64,000 nucleotides of DNA from Thermotoga profunda AZM34c06 (GCF_000828675.1 NZ_AP014510.1:575413-639412), one strand, 5' to 3'; shown: positions 3,030 through 47,104, numbered from the stretch's first letter. Translations and numbers: made by a program. Notes: a model not told the origin generated them from the letters alone.

Positions 3030-3821
3030 TTGGTTCTTGAAAGAATCCAGCTCTTTTTATTGGATATGGATGGTACCTTTTATTTGGGTGATGATCTTCT
3101 TCCTGGTGCGCTGGATTTTGTAGAGACGATAAGAGAACAAGGAAAGAGATTCCTTTTTTTGACAAACAATTCTTCCAAAGACAGCAGACAATATGTTGCT
3201 AAATTGAGAAGACTTGGCGTTCACGTTGATATAGAAGATGTTTTCACATCTGGTGAGGCTACTGCCATTTTCACGAAGTACAGATATGGGAATGCGAGGG
3301 TCTTTGTTATAGGTACACAGTCGCTTGTTAAGACCTTCGAAGAATATGGTCATATTGTCACTAATGTAGATCCGCAGGTCGTAATCCTTGGTTATGATAC
3401 AGAAATTAATTATGAAAAACTATCCTTAGGATGTCTTTTCATAAGAAAAGGATTAGACTACATAGCTACACACCCAGATATAAACTGCCCATCGTCTCAA
3501 GGTCCGTTGCCTGATGCTGGTTCATTCATTGCGTTGATAGAAAAGTCCACAGGTAGAAAACCAGATTTCATCATTGGTAAACCAAATCCTTTGATGCTGC
3601 AAATGATCGTGGAGAAGACTGGCGTTAAGCCAGAACAAATAGCAATGGTTGGCGATAGGCTCTACACCGATATGGAATTTGCTAAAAGATCTGGTATTCT
3701 TTCAATACTCGTTCTTTCTGGTGAGAGTAGCTTAGACGATTTGGCAAAGGTTGAACAAAAGCCAGATTTGGTTTTACAGAACATAGGAGAACTTGCTTCA
3801 ATACTCAAAAGGAAGGTTTGA
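3030..3821 (+). CDS. HAD-IIA family hydrolase (NagD-like sugar phosphatase)
   Basis: LLDMDGT catalytic motif, LTNNSS, GDRLYTDM. The ORF track begins at GTG 3021, but a GAGGTGA RBS sits 6 nt before TTG 3030. Confidence 0.75.
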   Translation: MVLERIQLFLLDMDGTFYLGDDLLPGALDFVETIREQGKRFLFLTNNSSKDSRQYVAKLRRLGVHVDIEDVFTSGEATAIFTKYRYGNARVFVIGTQSLVKTFEEYGHIVTNVDPQVVILGYDTEINYEKLSLGCLFIRKGLDYIATHPDINCPSSQGPLPDAGSFIALIEKSTGRKPDFIIGKPNPLMLQMIVEKTGVKPEQIAMVGDRLYTDMEFAKRSGILSILVLSGESSLDDLAKVEQKPDLVLQNIGELASILKRKV

Positions 3822-4924: not shown

Positions 4925-6534
4925 TTGATCAGTCCTCGTGTGTAATAAATAGTGTCAGAGTAAAGCTCATCTGCAAATCTAATCTGCACTGTAACGGGCG
5001 TTATATCAGATGGAAGCGGTCTTGTGCGATTGAAAGTGATTTTCCATATGGGTTGCCATATATCAACAGGTGATGCGACTAAACCAGTACCACCACTGAA
5101 CAAAACAAATTCTGAGGTTGGTGAACTCGTAAAGATCTTTACATTTTTTCCACGCAATGTCACGATGTCCGTCTTTCTGAAGTTATTCGGCAGGTCTTGG
5201 AAGAAAACGCCATATGCCGAACCTCTTTTTATGAAGGAAAGAGTTTTTTCAAAAAAGCTTTGATCGGCTTTCAACCACTGTAATTTCACATGGTTTAATG
5301 AGATATTGAAAAAAACCGGTCCGCCGCCTTCACGTACCTCTAAGAAATCTCTTACATACGGCACAGCCTCTCCGAGAATATTTTCTACTCTGACAAGTAG
5401 ATTGATATTATCATTCTCAAGGTTGAGATTATCGATCTTCACTATGAGTGGCTCTTGGGATTTCATGGGGTGTATCGTTACTGTGTCTGTCTTCCAGTTC
5501 ATGAAAATCAGATATGGATATAGATACTCAAAAAGCATCGTACCGTCTGATGGTGTATAGAATTCGTAAAGTTTATCATCTCGAATGAAGGCGAGCTTTC
5601 GATCTTTCGTCAATATAATTGGGTCACCGTGAATACTCACTTCGAAAGACCAGGCATTGTAAGAAGGAAGAGATTTGATTTTCTTGAAAGAGAAATCGTA
5701 GTATAAAAGTTGATTTTTCATTACATCGAGAATCCAAAAGCCATATGGGGTTAATTCAATATCGTTGATGATATAGAAATCATCAAGCGAAAAGAAATCG
5801 ACAGATTTGCCATCGTACACGAAGACCCTATCGACGTCACTACCCCAAAGCCTTCCAATTCTGTCAAAACCCGCAAGTATAGGATTTATGAAACCTTCAT
5901 GAATGATCTTTTCAGATTCATTTTTCAAGTCGTACTCAATCAACTTCCCATCACCACTGATATACAACAAACCTGAATGAGAAATGGCTAAGCTATTTGG
6001 TGATGTATTGGTTTTTAAAATTTTGTAATTTCCTTCAAAAGTCAATATCAGTCTTTTGTTTGCTTTATCGGCGATGATTAGAGAATTCCCCCAAAAAGTA
6101 GCGGCATTTGGTGTATAAAAATATTCTGTGCCTTTCTGAAAACCAGAGAATACTATTGATTCGTCGAAAACAGTTGGTGTGGAAAACTCGAGTGGTTTTT
6201 GAAGTGTTTCAATCTCCTTGAGTAATGAGATAACTTCAGACTTACCGGGGCTGATGACAAGAATGGTTTTGAGATCCTCTTGTGCTCTTTCCACTGCACG
6301 CATGTCTATGTCTATTTTGGAAGTGAAAAACCAAAATTCGGGTATGTCGGAAACATAAATCAAGCCTGATAAGGCTTCATCCATGAGAGATCTTGCTTTA
6401 CTGACATCTCCATCATACCAGAGAGAAAGCGCTTGAGAAAAAAGGTCTCGCGCTTGTTCTTCGTTGATTATTGAAAAACTCGTAATTGAGATAATAGACA
6501 CCAACAACAAGCAAAATGCTTTTTTCACCATCAA
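4921..6534 (-). CDS. secreted hypothetical protein (signal peptide, TPR-like N-terminus, repeat/beta-rich body)
   Basis: N-terminal hydrophobic signal peptide MMVKKAFCLLLVSIISI. No recognisable catalytic motif. Co-directional and overlapping with plsY and the TPR gene. Confidence 0.5.
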   Translation of the reverse strand: MMVKKAFCLLLVSIISITSFSIINEEQARDLFSQALSLWYDGDVSKARSLMDEALSGLIYVSDIPEFWFFTSKIDIDMRAVERAQEDLKTILVISPGKSEVISLLKEIETLQKPLEFSTPTVFDESIVFSGFQKGTEYFYTPNAATFWGNSLIIADKANKRLILTFEGNYKILKTNTSPNSLAISHSGLLYISGDGKLIEYDLKNESEKIIHEGFINPILAGFDRIGRLWGSDVDRVFVYDGKSVDFFSLDDFYIINDIELTPYGFWILDVMKNQLLYYDFSFKKIKSLPSYNAWSFEVSIHGDPIILTKDRKLAFIRDDKLYEFYTPSDGTMLFEYLYPYLIFMNWKTDTVTIHPMKSQEPLIVKIDNLNLENDNINLLVRVENILGEAVPYVRDFLEVREGGGPVFFNISLNHVKLQWLKADQSFFEKTLSFIKRGSAYGVFFQDLPNNFRKTDIVTLRGKNVKIFTSSPTSEFVLFSGGTGLVASPVDIWQPIWKITFNRTRPLPSDITPVTVQIRFADELYSDTIYYTRGLIK

Positions 6535-31336: not shown

Positions 31337-31460
31337 AAAAAATAAAAAATCGGTAGTGAAAGTCTCTACCGAAAAGAAATTAGCCCTTGTAGCCAGGACA
31401 GTTTACGGCTGTCCGGTAGAGACTTCCGAGCCCTATTCTCGGAATTATACAAGGGCATTT
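31337..31460 (-). ncRNA. purine (guanine-class) riboswitch with terminator/antiterminator expression platform, leader of the pur operon
   Basis: Minus-strand RNA GCCCUUGUAUAAUUCCGAGAAUAGGGCUCGGAAGUCUCUACCGGACAGCCGUAAACUGUCCUGGCUACAAGGGC matches the B. subtilis xpt G-box almost element by element. P1 is GCCCUUGUA/UACAAGGGC. J1/2 is UAUAAU. P2 and L2 are UCCGAG-AAUAGGGC-CUCGGA. J2/3 is AGUCUCUACC. P3 and L3 are GGACAG-CCGUAAA-CUGUCC. A C immediately precedes the 3' strand of P1 (the guanine-specifying position). Downstream hairpin UCGGUAG-AGACUUUCA-CUACCGA plus UUUUUUAUUUUUU forms an intrinsic terminator. Its 5' arm CGGUAGAGACU is complementary to aptamer J2/3 AGUCUCUACCG (antiterminator). Confidence 0.9.
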
Positions 31461-31582
31461 CCCCGTGGGAGGGAAATATTCACTTGTACAGTTTAATAAT
31501 ATCATGAAGCTTAATCAGAGATATATTTTCAAAATGAATAAAAATACTTTACAAAATTTTGTGCCCAAAGATCTCAACTGTC

Positions 31583-39477: not shown

Positions 39478-40314
39478 GTGCTAACTGAATTTCAAAGAAA
39501 TGAAATCACCGAACACGTTGTTTATAAAATACTTGCCAAGCATGATAAATCTGAGAATTCAAAGATCTTAAGCAGGATATCTCAAGAAGAGCTCTCACAC
39601 TACGAAAGGATTCGTTCATTGACTAAGGTTGATGTGAAGCCAAATTGGTTCAAGGTCTTTTGGTATGTTGTCCTTGCAAGAATTCTTGGGTTGACTTTCG
39701 CATTGAAATTAATGGAAAGAGGAGAGGAAAAAGCCCAAAAGAATTATTCATCGGCTCAAGAAAATCTGTTTAGAGAATTAATCAGCGATGAAAAGGATCA
39801 TGAAGAGGAGTTACTTAAATTGATAGACGAAGAGAAACTCGATTATATAGGCTCGATGGTCCTTGGATTGAACGACGCGCTTGTTGAACTGACCGGAGCA
39901 CTTGCTGGTTTGACTTTGGCGATACAAAAGACATCGATCGTAGCTCTTTCTGGAATAATCACTGGTATAGCAGCTGCCCTTTCTATGGCTGCATCTGATT
40001 ATCTGTCCAGAAAATCAGAAGGTGGCGAGAAAAAACCACTCAAATCTGCTTTATATACGGGAGTTGCCTATATATTCACCGTTTTATTTTTAACATTTCC
40101 TTATCTTTTGTTCAATAATCCATTCGTTGCGCTATCTTTGACGGTTATAAATGCGATCTTTGTGATTTTCATCTTTACCTTTTTTGTGTCTGTTGTGAAA
40201 GACCAGAGTTTTAGGAGAAATTTCTTGGAAATGTTTTCAATAAGTATAGGGGTGGCGGCAGTTTCATTTTTCATAGGTCTTTTTGTCAGAAAGTTCTTTA
40301 ACATCGATATTTGA
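39478..40314 (+). CDS. membrane-bound ferritin-like/VIT1 fusion protein (MbfA/CCC1-like Fe/Mn transporter)
   Basis: N-terminal erythrin/ferritin-like domain with ExxH (ITEHVVY, QEELSHYERI). C-terminal VIT1 domain (GSMVLGLNDALVELTGALAG, multiple TM). GTG start 8 nt after AGGAGG. Confidence 0.75.
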   Translation: MLTEFQRNEITEHVVYKILAKHDKSENSKILSRISQEELSHYERIRSLTKVDVKPNWFKVFWYVVLARILGLTFALKLMERGEEKAQKNYSSAQENLFRELISDEKDHEEELLKLIDEEKLDYIGSMVLGLNDALVELTGALAGLTLAIQKTSIVALSGIITGIAAALSMAASDYLSRKSEGGEKKPLKSALYTGVAYIFTVLFLTFPYLLFNNPFVALSLTVINAIFVIFIFTFFVSVVKDQSFRRNFLEMFSISIGVAAVSFFIGLFVRKFFNIDI

Positions 40315-41682
40315 CACAGTTTTGTCCTCAGATTGATCGATCTTGCTTTGCCTTTCTTGAACAAAAGCGATCATGTTCTCGTAAAACAATTTCATTTCCT
40401 GTTCAGATAGATTTTTTCGCGCGTATCTCAATCTTACATACACATCTGTTGCAACAGAAAGATTTTCTTGATTTTCAGCAATTTTGAGTATTTCAATTGG
40501 TGTTAAGTGATGATATTGGGCGAAGTATTTTCTTCTCAACCACCAATAAGCACCAAGGATGAATTTCTCGCTCGGTTCATATTCAGGAATAACCTCAATG
40601 GGATAGAGTTCGATATCTTTCGGTATATTTCCTTCTGCATTTTGTTCATGGTATGTTTTTAATCGCAAGCCTTTGAGTAATGAATAAATCAGAGTGATAA
40701 TCATCAATAAAAGAGCCAACATACTTATAATATCGAGTATCAGTGTTACGTTCATCTTTGATTGCTTTGTTTGTGAGTTCTCGATTACAATCGTAGCTGT
40801 ACTCGACGGTTGATAAAATTGCTGACTTTGTCCTGTTTTTTCCTCGTATTGAAAAGTTTCTTGAATGGTATTCTCAGATGGCTTGATGAATCTGAAAAAG
40901 AGCGACAAAGAGCATATGGCAATTGTAAAGGTCAGTATTCCAAGCATGAGTAATTTTAGTGTTCCTCTTACGCCAAAATTGCTAATAGAAAAGGTAAACA
41001 GTAATGATCCAAAGAGAATGAGTACCGCTGGAAACCATATCTTGTCTATGAAATCCGTCAAAAAACTCTTTTTTGAGTTCTGGGATCTTTCAGATGGCTG
41101 CATTAGAATGACCTGTTCCTCTTGTTGCTCCTTTTGGGTTTGTTGTTCTTGATGTGCGGGGATCAACGACAAGATTGGTTTGAGTGGAACAAAATCGATT
41201 CGCGAAAAGACTGTGGCAACTATTAGGATTGATAGTATGTATACTAAGGCGATTTTGAGGTTTAAAAGTTTTGACTTGTTCAAATACCATGTTCCCAGCA
41301 GGAACCCAAAAAATAAAAGATCGGCAACCGTTCCATGTGGCTTTGCCAAGCTTAGGTACACACCAAGAAAGATCAAAGAAAATACAGAAGACAGTCCACT
41401 TGAAACGAATATCATAATGAGCGCCGTTGCTACAAGAGTGAACATCACGGAGGTGAAAAATTCTATTTTGATAATGCCAGCCAATACGAAGTTAATGATT
41501 AAGATAGCAGGAAAGATGAAGATCATTGAACAACCCAGATCCGAGACCAAAAGAATAAATGAAAACACCATCAGACCAGCGAGTACCAGAGTTGCCCAGA
41601 TCGGTAATGAACTGAACAGATAAAAGCCCATCAATACGAGTAAGGCAACAGTTAGCAGTTTTTCAAAAGCCTTGAATTTCAT
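40264..41682 (-). CDS. polytopic membrane protein with a C-terminal DUF4129-like domain (MoxR-system partner)
   Basis: 472 aa with about 8 predicted TM helices and a soluble C-terminus (WWLRRKYF...TPIEIL). Last gene of the MoxR-DUF58 operon. Its 3' end overlaps the convergent mbfA-like gene by about 51 nt. Confidence 0.5.
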   Translation of the reverse strand: MKFKAFEKLLTVALLVLMGFYLFSSLPIWATLVLAGLMVFSFILLVSDLGCSMIFIFPAILIINFVLAGIIKIEFFTSVMFTLVATALIMIFVSSGLSSVFSLIFLGVYLSLAKPHGTVADLLFFGFLLGTWYLNKSKLLNLKIALVYILSILIVATVFSRIDFVPLKPILSLIPAHQEQQTQKEQQEEQVILMQPSERSQNSKKSFLTDFIDKIWFPAVLILFGSLLFTFSISNFGVRGTLKLLMLGILTFTIAICSLSLFFRFIKPSENTIQETFQYEEKTGQSQQFYQPSSTATIVIENSQTKQSKMNVTLILDIISMLALLLMIITLIYSLLKGLRLKTYHEQNAEGNIPKDIELYPIEVIPEYEPSEKFILGAYWWLRRKYFAQYHHLTPIEILKIAENQENLSVATDVYVRLRYARKNLSEQEMKLFYENMIAFVQERQSKIDQSEDKTVSNIDVKELSDKKTYEK

Positions 41683-42943
41683 CGAATACCTCCTGCAATG
41701 TTTGACTTGGTTTAACTATCCTGATAATTATCTGCTCTTTTTCGAGTAATCTTGCCCTTTCATTTAATCTTTGCATGTCCAATGGATACATTTCATATGT
41801 TCTTGTCGGTTTATATCTCGGGTCTCTAAATCCATACGGGATTAAAAGTACAATCACTCGAGAAACCTTTGCCCTTGCATTAATCAATAATGGGAGCAAT
41901 GAGTCAGTTAGGTACATGGATATTATCACCAAAGTATTTGATGGATTCAGAACATATAGATCTTTGGCTAATTCATCGGCGAGTTGTGGTCCATTTTCAT
42001 CGCCCTCTGCCATCGCGAGAAGTTCTACTGCGTTTACCCAATCGGAAGTAGAGCCGTAGTTTCTTCTCAAGACCTCTCTTGCTACAACAACGATGTCTAT
42101 GAAATTCCCTTGTTGTGTCAACCAATAAATAATTGATGATGTTGCAAGTACTGCTTCTTCTTCGTAATTTTTCCTTATCTGTGCCCAGACATTCTTTGCG
42201 AAAATATCTTTTGATAGATTCAGATCCAGATAAATTATGGTATTACTGACGGCAGTGAAATCGAGTTCTTTGACATACAGTTCACCCAATTTGGCTGATA
42301 TCTTCCAATGGATCTTATTCAAAGGTTCGTTGGAGTATTCTCTAACACCTTTTATCTGTGTTGTATCTTCGAGTAATTTGAAGTCTGATCTGATCCCTGG
42401 GAGGAGTTCTCTGAGTCGTGATGGAAAGGATTCCAGGTACATTATTTTCGGTAAGACGAGTATCTGTTGTTCAGCAGAGTAATGAGCCCAGTGCTTGAAA
42501 AATCCGAGCGGATGTTCGTAAACAACGACAAGATCGGTGAGAACCTTTTTGCCTCTGGTTGAGAAAGTTGTCTTGGCTTGCAAGATAATTGGTTGTGATT
42601 TTTGTAAATGTACAGGTTGATCTAAAAGGTTATAGGTCAAAAGACCGGCGACTTTTATCTGTGACAGGATATTTATGTTCATATTTCCCGAGGAACAACA
42701 GAGCCTATGGTGAATTATCACATCTTCATTTGTGAAAGATCGTGTTCTGTTAGCCCACCTTTCAATATCAAGGTTGCCTATCTTTTGTTTTGTCGAGAAA
42801 TAATTGAACCATAAGAAACCACAGCAAATACACAAAATTACCGAAAAACCATTGAAATTTGCCAAAAGCCAAAGCGCAGACAAAGTTGTGAACAAAGAGA
42901 GTATGCCACTCGAAGAAGAGATTTTTTGTAGTTTAAGTTTCAC
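41663..42943 (-). CDS. DUF58 domain protein (vWA-like, MoxR partner)
   Basis: 426 aa with two N-terminal TM helices and the DUF58 core around IKGVREYSNEPLNKIHWK. Overlaps moxR by 11 nt. Confidence 0.7.
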   Translation of the reverse strand: MKLKLQKISSSSGILSLFTTLSALWLLANFNGFSVILCICCGFLWFNYFSTKQKIGNLDIERWANRTRSFTNEDVIIHHRLCCSSGNMNINILSQIKVAGLLTYNLLDQPVHLQKSQPIILQAKTTFSTRGKKVLTDLVVVYEHPLGFFKHWAHYSAEQQILVLPKIMYLESFPSRLRELLPGIRSDFKLLEDTTQIKGVREYSNEPLNKIHWKISAKLGELYVKELDFTAVSNTIIYLDLNLSKDIFAKNVWAQIRKNYEEEAVLATSSIIYWLTQQGNFIDIVVVAREVLRRNYGSTSDWVNAVELLAMAEGDENGPQLADELAKDLYVLNPSNTLVIISMYLTDSLLPLLINARAKVSRVIVLLIPYGFRDPRYKPTRTYEMYPLDMQRLNERARLLEKEQIIIRIVKPSQTLQEVFDEIQGF

Positions 42944-43880
42944 TCTTTATCGGTGCCTCCTCTGTTTGAAGAATATAGTTGAGTATTTCTTGCTTGGTTT
43001 TTCTCATGAGTCTTGCTTCAGGTTTTAAGATTATCCTGTGTGCCAGTACATCTATCACTATCTCTTTGACGTCATCTGGCAAGACATAATCTCTACCCCT
43101 CAAACCAGCCAGAGATCTTGAGATTTCCATAAGAGCGATAGCACCCCTTGGACTTGCACCAAGGGCTATGTCCTCGTGTTCTCTGGTTCTTGAAACAATT
43201 CTTATTATGTAATCCAATATGGAGTCGTCAATGTAAATCTGTTTGACATTTTGTTTGGCTTCATCGAGTTCTTGTATATCACAAACAGGTTTCAGTGAAT
43301 CTATAGGATGAATTTTCTCGAGTTTGCGAAGCATTCTCATCTCGTCATCTCTACCAAGATAGCCGAGTGACACGCAGATGGAAAATCTATCGAGTTGTGC
43401 TTCAGGTAAAGGAAAGGTTCCTTCGAATTCCACAGGATTTTGCGTTGCTATTACAAAAAAGTGCTTACTCAATGAATAGGTGGTTCCGTCAACTGTAACT
43501 TGTCTCTCTGCCATAGCTTGAAGCAATGCCGACTGTGTTCGTGGAGTTGCCCTATTTATCTCATCTGCAAGAAGGATATCGGTGAAAATAGGACCTTTTT
43601 TGAAAACAAATTCGTTGTGTCTGACGTCCAAGATATTCAATCCCGTTATATCAGATGGTAACAAGTCTGGTGTGCATTGGACTCTGTTGAAATTCAAACC
43701 TACGGAAACAGATAGAGCCCTTGCGAGCATAGTCTTACCAACACCAGGAACATCGTTCAAAAGTACATGTCCGTCACTGAGCATAGAGGCTAATATTTTT
43801 TCCACGACGGTCTCTTTTCCAACGATCACCTTTGAGACGTTCTCGATTATCTTTCTCGCGAAATTCTCCAGAATTGCCAT
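42933..43880 (-). CDS. MoxR-family AAA+ ATPase
   Basis: Walker A LLNDVPGVGKT and Walker B ILLADEINRA. 315 aa. Confidence 0.85.
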   Translation of the reverse strand: MAILENFARKIIENVSKVIVGKETVVEKILASMLSDGHVLLNDVPGVGKTMLARALSVSVGLNFNRVQCTPDLLPSDITGLNILDVRHNEFVFKKGPIFTDILLADEINRATPRTQSALLQAMAERQVTVDGTTYSLSKHFFVIATQNPVEFEGTFPLPEAQLDRFSICVSLGYLGRDDEMRMLRKLEKIHPIDSLKPVCDIQELDEAKQNVKQIYIDDSILDYIIRIVSRTREHEDIALGASPRGAIALMEISRSLAGLRGRDYVLPDDVKEIVIDVLAHRIILKPEARLMRKTKQEILNYILQTEEAPIKSET

Positions 43881-44503
43881 TTGTGATTCCTCCTGTTATC
43901 CAAATTCGTTGGCTGTGATATCAATTTACCAACTGATCTGTACGCAGTTGCCTCTTTGCCAATAGATTCCTTGTTTCGATAATCGTGTTTTTTGATGAAT
44001 ATTGACAGTTGATCTTTCAGATAGTTCAATTTCTCAGTCTGAATTTCCTTAAAACGATCTTTTGTAGTATCATTCAATAATCTGTATATCTTGCCGAAAT
44101 GATATAGACAAAAAACTGAATCGCTTTGTGAAAAGAGTATCATACCATCAGTTTCACTGAGGATTTTACCAAAGGAACTTGTGTAAACTTCCTCGAGTTG
44201 AGACTCATGATTGCACAAATAGCAGCTACACGAGTATATATCTGATTCATTTTGTTTTATGGTTTTCAATTTGTGGTCGAGTATGTCTTCGTATATAATC
44301 GCTATACCTAACAGTCCAAGTTCAGGATGATGATGGAGGTATCTCTCGATAATTTCTACGTGTTTTCTACACAATCCCATGGTTCTCAAGTTCGATCTGA
44401 CTTGAGGGTCATTGACGAGCTCATACAAGATAGTGTCTATGAGTTTTTCCATGCTTTCATTGATCAATTTGCAAATAGGACAAGATTGATCTTTCTCAGA
44501 CAT
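43847..44503 (-). CDS. Cys-rich hypothetical protein, first gene of the MoxR operon
   Basis: 218 aa from ATG 44503 (MSEKDQSCPICK...). Motifs CPIC, CRKH and CSCYLCNH suggest metal binding. The 31 extra N-terminal residues in the ORF track are a terminator hairpin read as protein. Confidence 0.5.
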   Translation of the reverse strand: MSEKDQSCPICKLINESMEKLIDTILYELVNDPQVRSNLRTMGLCRKHVEIIERYLHHHPELGLLGIAIIYEDILDHKLKTIKQNESDIYSCSCYLCNHESQLEEVYTSSFGKILSETDGMILFSQSDSVFCLYHFGKIYRLLNDTTKDRFKEIQTEKLNYLKDQLSIFIKKHDYRNKESIGKEATAYRSVGKLISQPTNLDNRRNHKWQFWRISRER

Positions 44504-44557
44504 GATATCGATAATCTTGATTTCCACAAAATCTCTTGGTTTCAAATCTCTCACCTC

Positions 44558-44593
44558 GAAAAGAAAAAAACTCCTACTCTTTCGAGTAGGAGT
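44558..44593 (-). terminator. intrinsic terminator downstream of the GH38 mannosidase gene
   Basis: Minus-strand ACUCCUACUC-gaaa-GAGUAGGAGU hairpin followed by UUUUUUUCUUUUC, about 50 nt after the stop at 44645. Confidence 0.75.
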
Positions 44594-44644
44594 CATCAGC
44601 CTCTATGGGCAAGTATGGCAGACCCCATTGCCAAAATCATTATA

Positions 44645-47104
44645 TCATATTTTTATCAACCAACTTCGAACATTTTTGAGTTTTTCCTCTGGTTTAATTG
44701 GCTTTTCGGCGAGATTAACCTCGATTATCTCCTTAGATCGATATTTGATCTTTGGCTCATTTCCTTGTGGGTCGAAAGCTCGAATTATCACACCTTCACC
44801 ATTTTCAGAAGGTTTGAGAGTATTCAAGAAACCTCTTTCTATCTCCAGTTCTATCTTTGGAAGCTTTTCAAACTTTCCCTGGACTGCTATAGGTGGTATT
44901 TGATAATTTCTAACACTTCTATAGACATCTTCGATATTCCATTTGTCATGGAGGATAATCGAAAACTCGGCAACATGTTCGCCAATTCCCTGAGCTTCAG
45001 GTGTTCTAATACCAGGACCGGCATGATCTGGTCTTGTGACAAGATCGTTTCTTGAAAGCCACTCTACACATCTGAGCAAGGTTATCTTTAAACCATCGTG
45101 ATCGACCCGCACCTCCCTGAGTCCTTTTGTTGAGATCGTCACGCCAATCTCGGGAAGCGTCGCAAACCAGTACATTGCAAAATTGTTATCTGGCAATTCT
45201 GCCCATTTTGAATAATCCTCATCAAAATTTTCTATTGTATGTTCTACAGGGCCAAAATATCCATCGGTGATGAGTTTTGAAAGATTTTTGAATGGAAAGA
45301 CAATGGATAATCTGTGATCTTTTACGTAATTAATGAACTGGATTTTCACATCTATTCTTGGTGTGTCTCTGTAAAATGTATATTCGATTTCAAATGGTAA
45401 ATCTACCAATTTCTCTGAACGTTTTTTTCTGTTTATGGCTATTGATTCTGGTATTTGCATAGTATTTGTGACAACTATCTTCTTCATAAAAGATGAATCA
45501 ATGCAATTATTGATAGTGGCATTGGTTTTAAGTGAATTGAAAATCTCTTTTGATACCCAGCTGTAATTGTACTCATCACCGATATCTTCTACATCTTCAA
45601 GATAGCACAGATTTTCAAAAGTTCTTTCTTTGCATTTCAATGTTAAAGTTCCATTTTCGTTTACCCGATGAGGCTGATCGAAAGATCCATTTTTTCCTTT
45701 CGAACGAACTATGTTGATAGTTTTGAAAGAAAGACTTGGTGCTGAAACGTTCAGAAAGCATCTGTATGTTTTTCTCTGGTCATTCTCAATAGCTTTTGTA
45801 GTATTACTTTCGAAAAATCTTATTAGTGTACTCATATCATTTTGTAAATCTTCTGCAGATTCTATTATGACCGTTTCTATTTCATTTCCATCTTCATCGA
45901 TGAATTTATATTCACCCTCTTCCAATTTTGCACAAACTTCAACAACGCCTTGGAAATTGCTTTCAAGTGGGTTAAAGAGTGTGATACCCATATCATCAAC
46001 GCGTTTATCGACAATTTCAAGAAAAGTTTTTGCAAATAAAGCCCTCCCATGGTCTATCGCATTCTTCAGTCTTACTTGTATGACTTTGTGTACAGCGTCA
46101 ATACTACATCCACAGATACTGTCGTGTGGTTGACACTGTAGAATTTGTTTCCACCCGTACCAGATAGAATTAACTGGAGTTGGATTACCTGTTATTCTCG
46201 AGATGGCAAGAATCGGTTCCAAATAATGAATGTAGAATTTCTCAGCTTGGTAATGCAATATCTTTTCCCAGATTCTTGTCGAAGTCACGTCCTTCAATAC
46301 CGGAACGATTCTTGGCGATCTCAATTCTCCAGTAATATGAGATCGAGGTCTTTCAAGTTCTGCGACGTATTGCTCAAATCCAGCATGAACGAATTTAATT
46401 TCGTTTGTAGAGATTTCCTCAAGAATTTTACCTATATTGAAATAAGGAATCTCATGATCTGTCCCATTCATTAAAAGCGGTGGATTGTGCGAGGATATGT
46501 TTGAAAGTTTCTCTGATTCTTCGATCAATTTTCTTTTCAGTGCTTGCTCATTGATGCCAAAGTGTGCTGCATTCGAATAACTGTGAATGAGATAAATTGC
46601 ATCTACTTGATCACCAAAAGGTGTTGACCAAATAAATGTTGCATCTTCGAGTTTATCAACGCCGCGCCATATGACAGCCCACCTCAATCCAAGTCCTTTA
46701 ACTACTGTTGGCATATATGCGTTATGCCCAAACATATCTGGCAGATAGGCAATGTTTGAAAGTTTCACACCGTATCTTTCGGCAATTTTCTCGCTGTAGA
46801 GATAGTTTCTAACCCAAGATTCTGAAGCTACGAGAAACTCATCTGGCAGTACATACCATGGACCAACGCTGATCTTGCCATTTCTTATTAGATCGAGAAA
46901 ATCCTGTCTTATACCCATAGTTTCTTCGGAATCTTCGAGTACAATCGTTTGCCCGTCTAAGTGGAAATGCTTGAACGAATCATCTTTTTTCATATGATCA
47001 GTGAGTTTCTCGAGTAAGAGTGTCAATCTTTCTCTGAAAATTTCAAAAGTTGTGTACCATTCTCTATCCCAATGTGTGTGAGTCACTACAAAAGCCTTTT
47101 TCAA
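44645..47104 (-). CDS. GH38 alpha-mannosidase
   Basis: N-terminal HTHWDREW motif and a length of 819 aa fit bacterial GH38 enzymes. Confidence 0.85.
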   Translation of the reverse strand: MKKAFVVTHTHWDREWYTTFEIFRERLTLLLEKLTDHMKKDDSFKHFHLDGQTIVLEDSEETMGIRQDFLDLIRNGKISVGPWYVLPDEFLVASESWVRNYLYSEKIAERYGVKLSNIAYLPDMFGHNAYMPTVVKGLGLRWAVIWRGVDKLEDATFIWSTPFGDQVDAIYLIHSYSNAAHFGINEQALKRKLIEESEKLSNISSHNPPLLMNGTDHEIPYFNIGKILEEISTNEIKFVHAGFEQYVAELERPRSHITGELRSPRIVPVLKDVTSTRIWEKILHYQAEKFYIHYLEPILAISRITGNPTPVNSIWYGWKQILQCQPHDSICGCSIDAVHKVIQVRLKNAIDHGRALFAKTFLEIVDKRVDDMGITLFNPLESNFQGVVEVCAKLEEGEYKFIDEDGNEIETVIIESAEDLQNDMSTLIRFFESNTTKAIENDQRKTYRCFLNVSAPSLSFKTINIVRSKGKNGSFDQPHRVNENGTLTLKCKERTFENLCYLEDVEDIGDEYNYSWVSKEIFNSLKTNATINNCIDSSFMKKIVVTNTMQIPESIAINRKKRSEKLVDLPFEIEYTFYRDTPRIDVKIQFINYVKDHRLSIVFPFKNLSKLITDGYFGPVEHTIENFDEDYSKWAELPDNNFAMYWFATLPEIGVTISTKGLREVRVDHDGLKITLLRCVEWLSRNDLVTRPDHAGPGIRTPEAQGIGEHVAEFSIILHDKWNIEDVYRSVRNYQIPPIAVQGKFEKLPKIELEIERGFLNTLKPSENGEGVIIRAFDPQGNEPKIKYRSKEIIEVNLAEKPIKPEEKLKNVRSWLIKI

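Follow-up and report, generated by a model that had tools for sequence, protein, structure and literature searches.

What calls an operon built around a MoxR-type AAA+ ATPase into expression, and what does a small Cys/His-rich protein do at its head? These questions are raised by four genes on the minus strand of a 64,000-nucleotide (nt) stretch of the Pseudothermotoga (Thermotoga) profunda genome (the window, along the whole of which coordinates are counted), which encode in order a DUF6062 protein, the MoxR ATPase, a DUF58 protein and a polytopic membrane protein. The original prediction took the first of these for a metal-binding partner of MoxR and held its location next to an iron-export gene to be suggestive. 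We found instead that a fluoride riboswitch, missed in that reading, stands ahead of the first gene and sets the physiological context of the operon, and the locus is very likely a fluoride-inducible transcription unit.

The riboswitch leader and the operon behind it

A search with cmscan placed a fluoride riboswitch aptamer (Rfam RF01734, the crcB motif) at 44580-44641 on the minus strand, the same strand as the genes, with 34 nt between its end and the TTG start of gene 1. At 43.7 bits the match exceeds the gathering score (34); it spans the model from end to end (1-64 of 64), has an E-value of 6.3e-10 to 8.1e-9 depending on the sequence searched, and is the only RF01734 element in the whole 64 kb. 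With our own covariance model R1, which was built from 24 aptamers upstream of DUF6062 operons and whose E-values are rough, the window aptamer scores 67.4 bits. Stems P1 and P2 and the pseudoknot covary across these 24 aptamers (96.8% of cells paired, 9 pairs changed on both sides). Within the pseudoknot pairing is complete (100%), and 3 of the 5 pairs have changed on both strands; a control with slid partners reached at most 53% pairing.

The surroundings of the aptamer are those of an expression platform. The terminator scan found an intrinsic terminator with an 11-bp stem, a 4-nt loop and a T-run at 44559-44594 (minus strand; 5' arm GACUCCUACUC), and the 3' strand of the aptamer pseudoknot (ACUCC) sits within its 5' arm. 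The minimum-energy fold of the 96-nt leader combines P1 with the terminator hairpin (-34.5 kcal/mol, z -3.76). On the other side, a candidate extended -10 element (TGATATAAT, 44639-44647, minus strand) overlaps the stop codon of the upstream GH38 gene. The scan for consensus promoters did not list this box, there being no good -35 element, and a TATAAT box lies 8-9 nt ahead of P1 in all Pseudothermotoga loci of our alignment A5. With riboswitch and -10 box taken in, the transcription unit reaches to ~44647, upstream of where the original prediction had begun it. Aptamer, -10 box, terminator, Shine-Dalgarno sequence and TTG start are conserved ahead of the four-gene operon in Pseudothermotoga relatives and in an uncultured Thermotoga clade, whose leader shows compensatory base changes.

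Terminators often overlap the crcB motif, so that ligand binding should raise expression (Weinberg et al. 2010, PMC2864571), and the fluoride riboswitch of Thermotoga petrophila antiterminates with NaF in vitro (PMC12667848). The order of promoter (~44647-44639), aptamer (44641-44580) and terminator (44594-44559) in the window leader is the layout of a standard transcriptional ON switch, and from this anatomy and the riboswitch class we infer ON logic here as well. Without fluoride the terminator would form and transcription would halt just short of the gene 1 ribosome-binding site. In the presence of fluoride the pseudoknot would hold the shared strand, the terminator would be blocked and the polymerase would read through into the four genes.

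The leader also bears on where gene 1 begins. The open reading frame as listed (43847-44596, minus strand) would give a protein of 249 amino acids from ATG 44596, which we rejected because the riboswitch and terminator lie within it. The original prediction had used ATG 44503 (218 amino acids), and the start is most likely TTG 44545 (232 amino acids) instead. The 14 residues before ATG 44503 (KPRDFVEIKIIDI) are conserved, with E11, I12 and D16 invariant among close homologues, gene callers start the orthologues from an identical MKPRDF, and a Shine-Dalgarno sequence read from the DNA (GAGGTG, 44552-44557, minus strand, conserved in alignment A5) stands 6 nt ahead of the TTG.

From this start the genes follow one another with overlaps of 34, 11 and 20 nt, which match the minus-strand open reading frame listing exactly as first described and which are kept in relatives. 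The overlaps leave no space for a terminator or promoter inside the run of genes 1-4, and scanning found none there on the minus strand. Such overlapping genes suggest coupled translation, and the four proteins may well be produced together and associate physically.

DUF6062 and its fluoride context across lineages

Gene 1 (43847-44545, minus strand), whose product is 100% identical to an NCBI protein of P. profunda, belongs to the uncharacterised Pfam family DUF6062 (PF19538; E 2.4e-18, 66.9-67.7 bits against a gathering score of 27), and the NCBI name agrees. The original prediction had recognised its CPIC, CRKH, CSCYLCNH and FCLYH motifs, all of which are present in the translation, and had been able to assign no family, a statement that the Pfam match overturns. 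Its broader idea of a protein outside the well-characterised families survives: NCBIfam gave no match, a sequence-profile search of the PDB reached a best E of 0.068, meaning that nothing similar has been solved, and Foldseek of the model against the PDB gave a best E of 0.77, with no solved fold alike. Scanning 40 DUF6062 members at E up to 1 returned just weak local zinc-motif matches, to the Rad50 zinc hook, RING and rubredoxin-like domains.

An alignment of 40 diverse homologues, down to 21% identity and numbered from the TTG start, leaves C22, C25, R50, G57, C59, H62, C111, C146, H149 and D188 invariant and P23, E42, N45, D46, D87, C108 and Y189 nearly so; the D188-Y189 motif is present in gene 1. 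The N- and C-terminal halves are homologous (hhalign probability 97%, E 1.7e-11) and their CxxC and CxxH motifs align, and DUF6062 is therefore read as one module present twice, each copy with a Cys3His site. AlphaFold2 confidently models the gene 1 product as all-helical (predicted local distance difference test score 90.2, predicted template modelling score 0.83), with each CxxC or CxxH pair at the N-terminus of a helix. A hydropathy scan found no transmembrane segment in the protein, which is presumably cytoplasmic.

The family comprises 5,499 representative clusters at E<=0.001, many of them tandem double copies of 450-520 amino acids, and the longer members proved to contain tandem DUF6062 repeats or coiled-coil extensions and no other domain fusions. 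Frequent duplication and double-length fusion suggest that DUF6062 functions as a dimer. Tandem copies also occur at locus L027 (3592-4407) and locus L036 (1201-1704), and in Dictyoglomota a mini-paralogue of 145 amino acids (L037, 8596-9033) retains CPxC, CxxH, CxxC and CxxH. Judging nucleic-acid binding from charge was dropped, the median isoelectric point of the family (~7.9) being uninformative.

Loci carrying DUF6062 were fetched by the peptide pattern [TSN][LIF][FL]YELVND or chosen from hit lists. A fluoride riboswitch stands ahead of DUF6062-containing operons, on the same strand, in ~18 of the 26 sampled sequence groups, which span several phyla (15 of 23 with the four P. profunda-like groups merged into one), and three further groups have DUF6062 directly ahead of crcB or DUF190. 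With RF01734 above its gathering score, the riboswitch is followed by DUF6062, MoxR, DUF58 and the membrane protein in all tested Pseudothermotoga-like loci and the uncultured Thermotoga clade; by two small open reading frames and DUF6062 in a Thermotogae metagenome-assembled genome (L021); by a 271-amino-acid gene, DUF6062, two small genes, CrcB and DUF190 in Thermococcus stetteri; by a histidine phosphatase and DUF6062 in Aerophobetes; by DUF6062 directly, or by DUF6062 and MFS, in Clostridia and unclassified metagenome-assembled genomes; by DUF6062, a 175-amino-acid open reading frame and MFS in Chloroflexota; and by a Usp fusion, DUF6062 and MFS in Rubrobacter. At L068 a riboswitch found with R1 precedes a zinc-finger protein, enolase, a 296-amino-acid gene, DUF6062 and a 165-amino-acid gene. 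The groups lacking a fluoride marker are T. caldifontis and Dictyoglomota, both of which have MoxR, and the most divergent Clostridia-type members; even searches relaxed to E 1 or run unfiltered gave no riboswitch in T. caldifontis, Dictyoglomota, Kosmotoga, L026, L030, L033, L059, L038 or L069. These arrangements show DUF6062 to be a widespread and recurrent predicted member of fluoride-riboswitch regulons across phyla, whatever its neighbors.

Such a distribution also raises a serious rival to a role with MoxR, namely that DUF6062 is a fluoride-induced regulator, for instance a zinc-stabilised DNA- or RNA-binding protein acting in trans, with the Thermotogota MoxR genes merely co-transcribed. 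It is usually the first gene behind the riboswitch. At four loci (L023, L024, L025 and L028) it follows the riboswitch immediately, and in three of these (L023, L025, L028) the next gene is on the opposite strand, which makes it seemingly the sole controlled gene; at L024 the contig ends. The widely varied downstream partners (crcB, MFS, MoxR) form a pattern typical of regulators, and an all-helical protein that is often tandem-duplicated or fused at double length, suggesting a dimer, would fit as well. Against this, profile scans of DUF6062 detected no helix-turn-helix or other nucleic-acid-binding family, the family is not basic, and DUF6062 is mid-operon or last in L068, L008, L035 and the Aerophobetes loci. 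On balance we regard a regulator as unlikely, though as the alternative to be taken most seriously.

More doubtful is the proposal that the two Cys3His sites hold iron-sulfur clusters and not zinc; DUF6062 would then be a redox or iron-sulfur sensor. Some iron-sulfur proteins do have Cys3His ligands, and most DUF6062 hosts are anaerobic thermophiles. The position of each CxxC or CxxH pair at a helix N-terminus in the model and the zinc character of the weak local matches speak against clusters, as does the occurrence of DUF6062 in Rubrobacter, an aerobe.

Several further observations were made at the sampled loci. The riboswitch-DUF6062 units of L023, L025 and L028 lie amid ArsR regulators, ArsP permease fragments, an ACR3/SBF-type transporter, an ABC-2 transporter and DUF1786, in what looks like a toxic-ion resistance region. 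The L068 contig holds a second fluoride riboswitch (3470-3531) ahead of a dynamin-like GTPase gene, and at L052 a fluoride-riboswitch/DUF6062/MFS operon is followed a few kb further downstream by two nhaA-I (sodium) riboswitches (5711-5767 and 6079-6130). DUF6062 operons repeatedly encode small helical proteins of unassigned family, one pair at L068 8642-9139 and L027 6293-6742 (BLAST E 3.7e-7) and a second at L008 8979-9392 and L021 695-1120 (pairwise BLAST E about 0.001-0.016), and may represent a further conserved partner that the window operon lacks. Elsewhere in the window a purine riboswitch (RF00167, 76.8 bits) was found at 31370-31472 on the minus strand; the same element precedes pur genes in L001, L007 and L014.

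The MoxR module and its own link to fluoride

Gene 2 (42933-43880, minus strand) encodes a MoxR-type AAA+ ATPase of 315 amino acids with AAA_3 (E 4.2e-62, 208 bits) and AAA_lid_2 (E 1.1e-24, 86 bits) Pfam domains, and its translation contains a Walker A motif GVGKT, a Walker B motif LLADE and a sensor 2 motif GASPRG. Beside it, gene 3 (41663-42943, minus strand; 426 amino acids) encodes a vWA-domain partner of the DUF58 type, with an N-terminal transmembrane hairpin, a beta-sandwich and a vWA-like domain. The protein passes Pfam DUF58 (PF01882) marginally, at 25.0 versus 23.4 bits, and PF01882 appears in the precomputed annotation of many of its orthologues. Its model has the vWA fold with a metal-ion-dependent adhesion site (MIDAS) and matches vWA domains including that of NorD in the NorQ-NorD complex; the MIDAS position reads DxNxS...TD, an altered motif conserved in 22 orthologues. 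With a vWA fold and a conserved MIDAS position in DUF58, the operon is therefore an ordinary MoxR-vWA pair plus an extra first gene.

Gene 4 (40264-41682, minus strand; 472 amino acids) is a polytopic membrane protein in which a hydropathy scan finds about nine hydrophobic segments, presumably transmembrane, followed by a C-terminal domain that may lie in the cytoplasm. The original prediction called it DUF4129-like. The window protein itself stays below threshold for DUF4129 (PF13559; 13.1-15.3 bits against a cut-off of 24.8, E 0.02-0.1), and the description draws its support from orthologues: five of nine give matches with E no higher than 0.1, the best at 6.7e-5, and the Mesoaciditoga orthologue gives a "faint" match. 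No Pfam match to Transglut_core or TgpA_N was obtained in gene 4 or its orthologues; the Dictyoglomota counterpart has both.

The extra first gene is a conserved one. The cluster of DUF6062, MoxR, DUF58 and membrane protein, co-directional and overlapping, recurs in three Thermotogota clades: the P. profunda-like relatives, T. caldifontis (36% DUF6062 identity and a wholly different set of genes on either side) and the uncultured Thermotoga clade (38% DUF6062 and 57% MoxR identity). The expectation that a Cys/His protein would lead this MoxR operon elsewhere is thereby borne out, and the link extends beyond Thermotogota. In Dictyoglomota (L037) DUF6062 and its mini-paralogue abut a convergent MoxR-DUF58-TgpA operon, and in one Chloroflexi genome (L027) MoxR-DUF58 is divergent from two tandem DUF6062 genes. 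A neighbor-joining tree of DUF6062 proteins puts the MoxR-linked members of Thermotogota, Dictyoglomota and Chloroflexi in separate clades. What does not hold is exclusivity. Most other sampled DUF6062 members have no MoxR within the sequence available, so DUF6062 is not MoxR-specific, and these MoxR-less genes sit behind fluoride riboswitches with crcB, enolase, Usp or MFS, or alone. Conversely, the DUF58 orthologues of Kosmotoga and Mesoaciditoga lie in MoxR-DUF58-membrane protein operons without DUF6062.

The MoxR-DUF58 module also has connections to fluoride of its own. The divergent intergenic region of L027 contains two fluoride riboswitches, one directed toward the DUF6062 pair and the other toward MoxR-DUF58, each equipped with a terminator of its own and with a pseudoknot that covaries (GAGGCU paired to AGCCUC or AGCUUC). 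With R1 they reach rough E-values of 3e-5 and 1.6e-4, and they fall below the Rfam gathering score because of inserted hairpins. One such hairpin (2728-2764) scores 43 bits against CRISPR-DR9, whose gathering score is 45, probably a chance resemblance. In Mesoaciditoga (L071, 5968-6027) a riboswitch-like element with a terminator (18 bits, E 0.002) stands just ahead of MoxR-DUF58-DUF4129, where there is no DUF6062. Its P1 loop reads GAGGAGUU in place of the otherwise invariant AUGGAGUU, and the element may have degenerated or may represent a variant whose properties have changed. As judged from these predicted elements, the comparison ties MoxR-DUF58 to DUF6062 and, in one other phylum or more, directly to the fluoride riboswitch, the module having apparently been placed under fluoride control at least twice.

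These results bear on a view that grows out of the original prediction, with DUF6062 serving MoxR specifically, as a sensor of metal (zinc or iron), an adaptor or a substrate, and having a functional tie to the neighboring iron exporter. In its favor are the eight conserved Cys/His ligands, the 34-nt overlap of DUF6062 with MoxR, which suggests translational coupling, and synteny that holds in three phyla. So is the presence nearby, in close relatives, of VIT1, a rubrerythrin-like gene and an encapsulin (Linocin_M18). In the window the VIT1 gene (39478-40314, plus strand) encodes a rubrerythrin/ferritin-like domain (MbfA-like) at the N-terminus of its product, and its 3' end shares 51 nt with the 3' end of gene 4, which is convergent to it. 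We rejected the iron link on finding that VIT1, the rubrerythrin-like gene and the encapsulin are conserved in the closest relatives only; the T. caldifontis, L019 and L020 loci have no VIT1. Most sampled DUF6062 genes also lack MoxR within the sequence available, and the cis-regulator belongs to the fluoride riboswitches and not to the sensors of iron or zinc. This view is therefore improbable, and the DUF6062 and MoxR system is probably part of a fluoride-stress response rather than an iron-linked one.

Equally improbable is a riboswitch that controls DUF6062 only, with an unrelated envelope or stress module downstream, as might be argued from the three-gene module standing alone in Kosmotoga and from MoxR-DUF58-transglutaminase clusters in many bacteria with no known fluoride link (PMC8430577, PMC11834572): the gene overlaps leave no room for separate transcription signals, the arrangement is kept across clades at 36-38% DUF6062 identity with different flanking genes, L027 has a fluoride riboswitch dedicated to MoxR-DUF58 and L071 a riboswitch-like element ahead of it, and chance adjacency of DUF6062 and MoxR in the three phyla was estimated at <1% per lineage (with MoxR assumed to occur about twice in every 3,000 genes and neighbors counted out to +/-5 genes). 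Two further candidates were set aside, an anti-phage defence system, for which PADLOC gave no match, and a bpMoxR ternary conflict system (MoxR-vWA-beta-propeller), since PF20030 scores 34 bits against 208 for AAA_3 and no beta-propeller gene is present.

A possible fluoride tolerance or repair system

If the four genes are fluoride-inducible together, what might their products do? The first would be a cytoplasmic, all-helical DUF6062 protein with one Cys3His metal site in each copy of its duplicated module; the others would be the MoxR ATPase, its vWA-type DUF58 partner anchored by the transmembrane hairpin, and the membrane protein with nine transmembrane segments and a DUF4129-like tail. 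Together they may form a membrane-associated, ATP-driven remodelling system in which DUF6062 would serve as a fluoride-specific adaptor or client. Such a system might protect or reactivate fluoride-damaged proteins, such as enzymes that metal-fluoride complexes have trapped or that have lost their metal; the AAA+ motor might free the trapped enzymes or re-metallate damaged proteins at the membrane.

NorQ-NorD, CbbQ-CbbO and the BchI-BchD / CobS-CobT chelatases, which like window genes 2-3 are AAA+/vWA pairs, insert metals or release inhibited enzymes. The remodelling and re-metallation role is proposed because of this analogy, and protection or reactivation of damaged proteins is put forward tentatively, as less likely than not. 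The analogy has its limits, as these pairs belong to other MoxR subfamilies and have known clients, whereas the window MIDAS is altered (DxNxS). Less likely than not as well is the larger proposal that DUF6062, MoxR, DUF58 and the DUF4129 protein make up a previously unrecognised ATP-driven fluoride tolerance or repair system or, alternatively, that the nine-transmembrane protein is a new type of exporter in organisms without CrcB.

Comparison with known systems brings out what is particular to the window operon. Like fluoride-resistance operons built on crcB or eriC(F), it has an RF01734 regulator and a terminator expression platform, and elsewhere DUF6062 shares operons with crcB, DUF190, enolase, Usp and a histidine phosphatase of the phosphoglycerate mutase family. 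The Enterobacter cloacae FRM fluoride operon reads ppaC-uspA-eno-gpmA-crcB-orf5249 (PMC5533749). The window operon differs from such operons in having no fluoride-sensitive enzyme and no fluoride exporter (CrcB/Fluc, CLC-F); tblastn with three CrcB proteins found no CrcB in the 64-kb window. Its cargo is instead an uncharacterised metal-binding protein and an AAA+/vWA remodelling module.

The order of AAA_3 MoxR, DUF58 and a polytopic membrane protein with a DUF4129-type tail is shared with MoxR (MRP)-DUF58-transglutaminase/TgpA clusters, examples being the Dictyoglomota operon of L037 and, in Bifidobacterium, the aaa-atp/duf58/tgm core of the PFNA cluster (PMC8430577). In contrast to these, the window membrane protein lacks a transglutaminase core and the window MoxR is preceded by DUF6062 and a fluoride riboswitch. 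Operons with an MRP-type MoxR usually begin with it (PMC11834572); in the window DUF6062 takes that place. The Bacteroides aerotolerance (Bat) operon similarly has a MoxR ATPase followed by DUF58 and a link to stress tolerance (PMC11834572). It differs in its inducer and in its BatA/BatB-type vWA membrane proteins and tetratricopeptide repeat (TPR) proteins, which the window operon lacks; the single gene after MoxR-DUF58, gene 4, has no Pfam match to VWA or TPR.

A number of observations weigh against the fluoride-inducible unit and remodelling system proposed here. T. caldifontis carries the same four genes as an operon without a detectable riboswitch, the adjacency of DUF6062 and MoxR in Dictyoglomota likewise comes without one, and the Kosmotoga MoxR-DUF58-membrane protein module has neither DUF6062 nor a riboswitch. 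The window aptamer scores below most of its relatives and has a G-U pair in its pseudoknot. The L027 and L071 elements fall under the Rfam gathering score and were identified with our own model and inspection by eye, and that of L071 deviates at two otherwise invariant loop nucleotides. The locus sample is biased by the way it was fetched from a family of ~5,500 representative clusters, and the fluoride response of the leader and operon, like any binding of DUF6062 to MoxR or to a particular metal, is a prediction.

The riboswitch class and the MoxR-DUF58 module are each known; their combination, and DUF6062 as part of a fluoride regulon, were not found in the literature searched. No prior link of DUF6062 or of MoxR/DUF58/DUF4129 to fluoride was found there, nor any mention of DUF6062, and DUF6062 may have been listed earlier as a "hypothetical" riboswitch-associated gene. 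MRP-type MoxR ATPases with DUF58/vWA partners are very widespread and few of their substrates and triggers are known, and here a fluoride riboswitch names a specific inducer. If either the repair system or the new exporter is real, an MRP-type MoxR system would gain its first defined inducer and a physiological role. The fluoride response is the dominant genomic context of the sampled DUF6062 genes, and an orphan family of several thousand sequence clusters would gain a role as well. A metal-binding protein and an AAA+ remodeller would then join exporters and fluoride-sensitive enzymes in the fluoride regulon.

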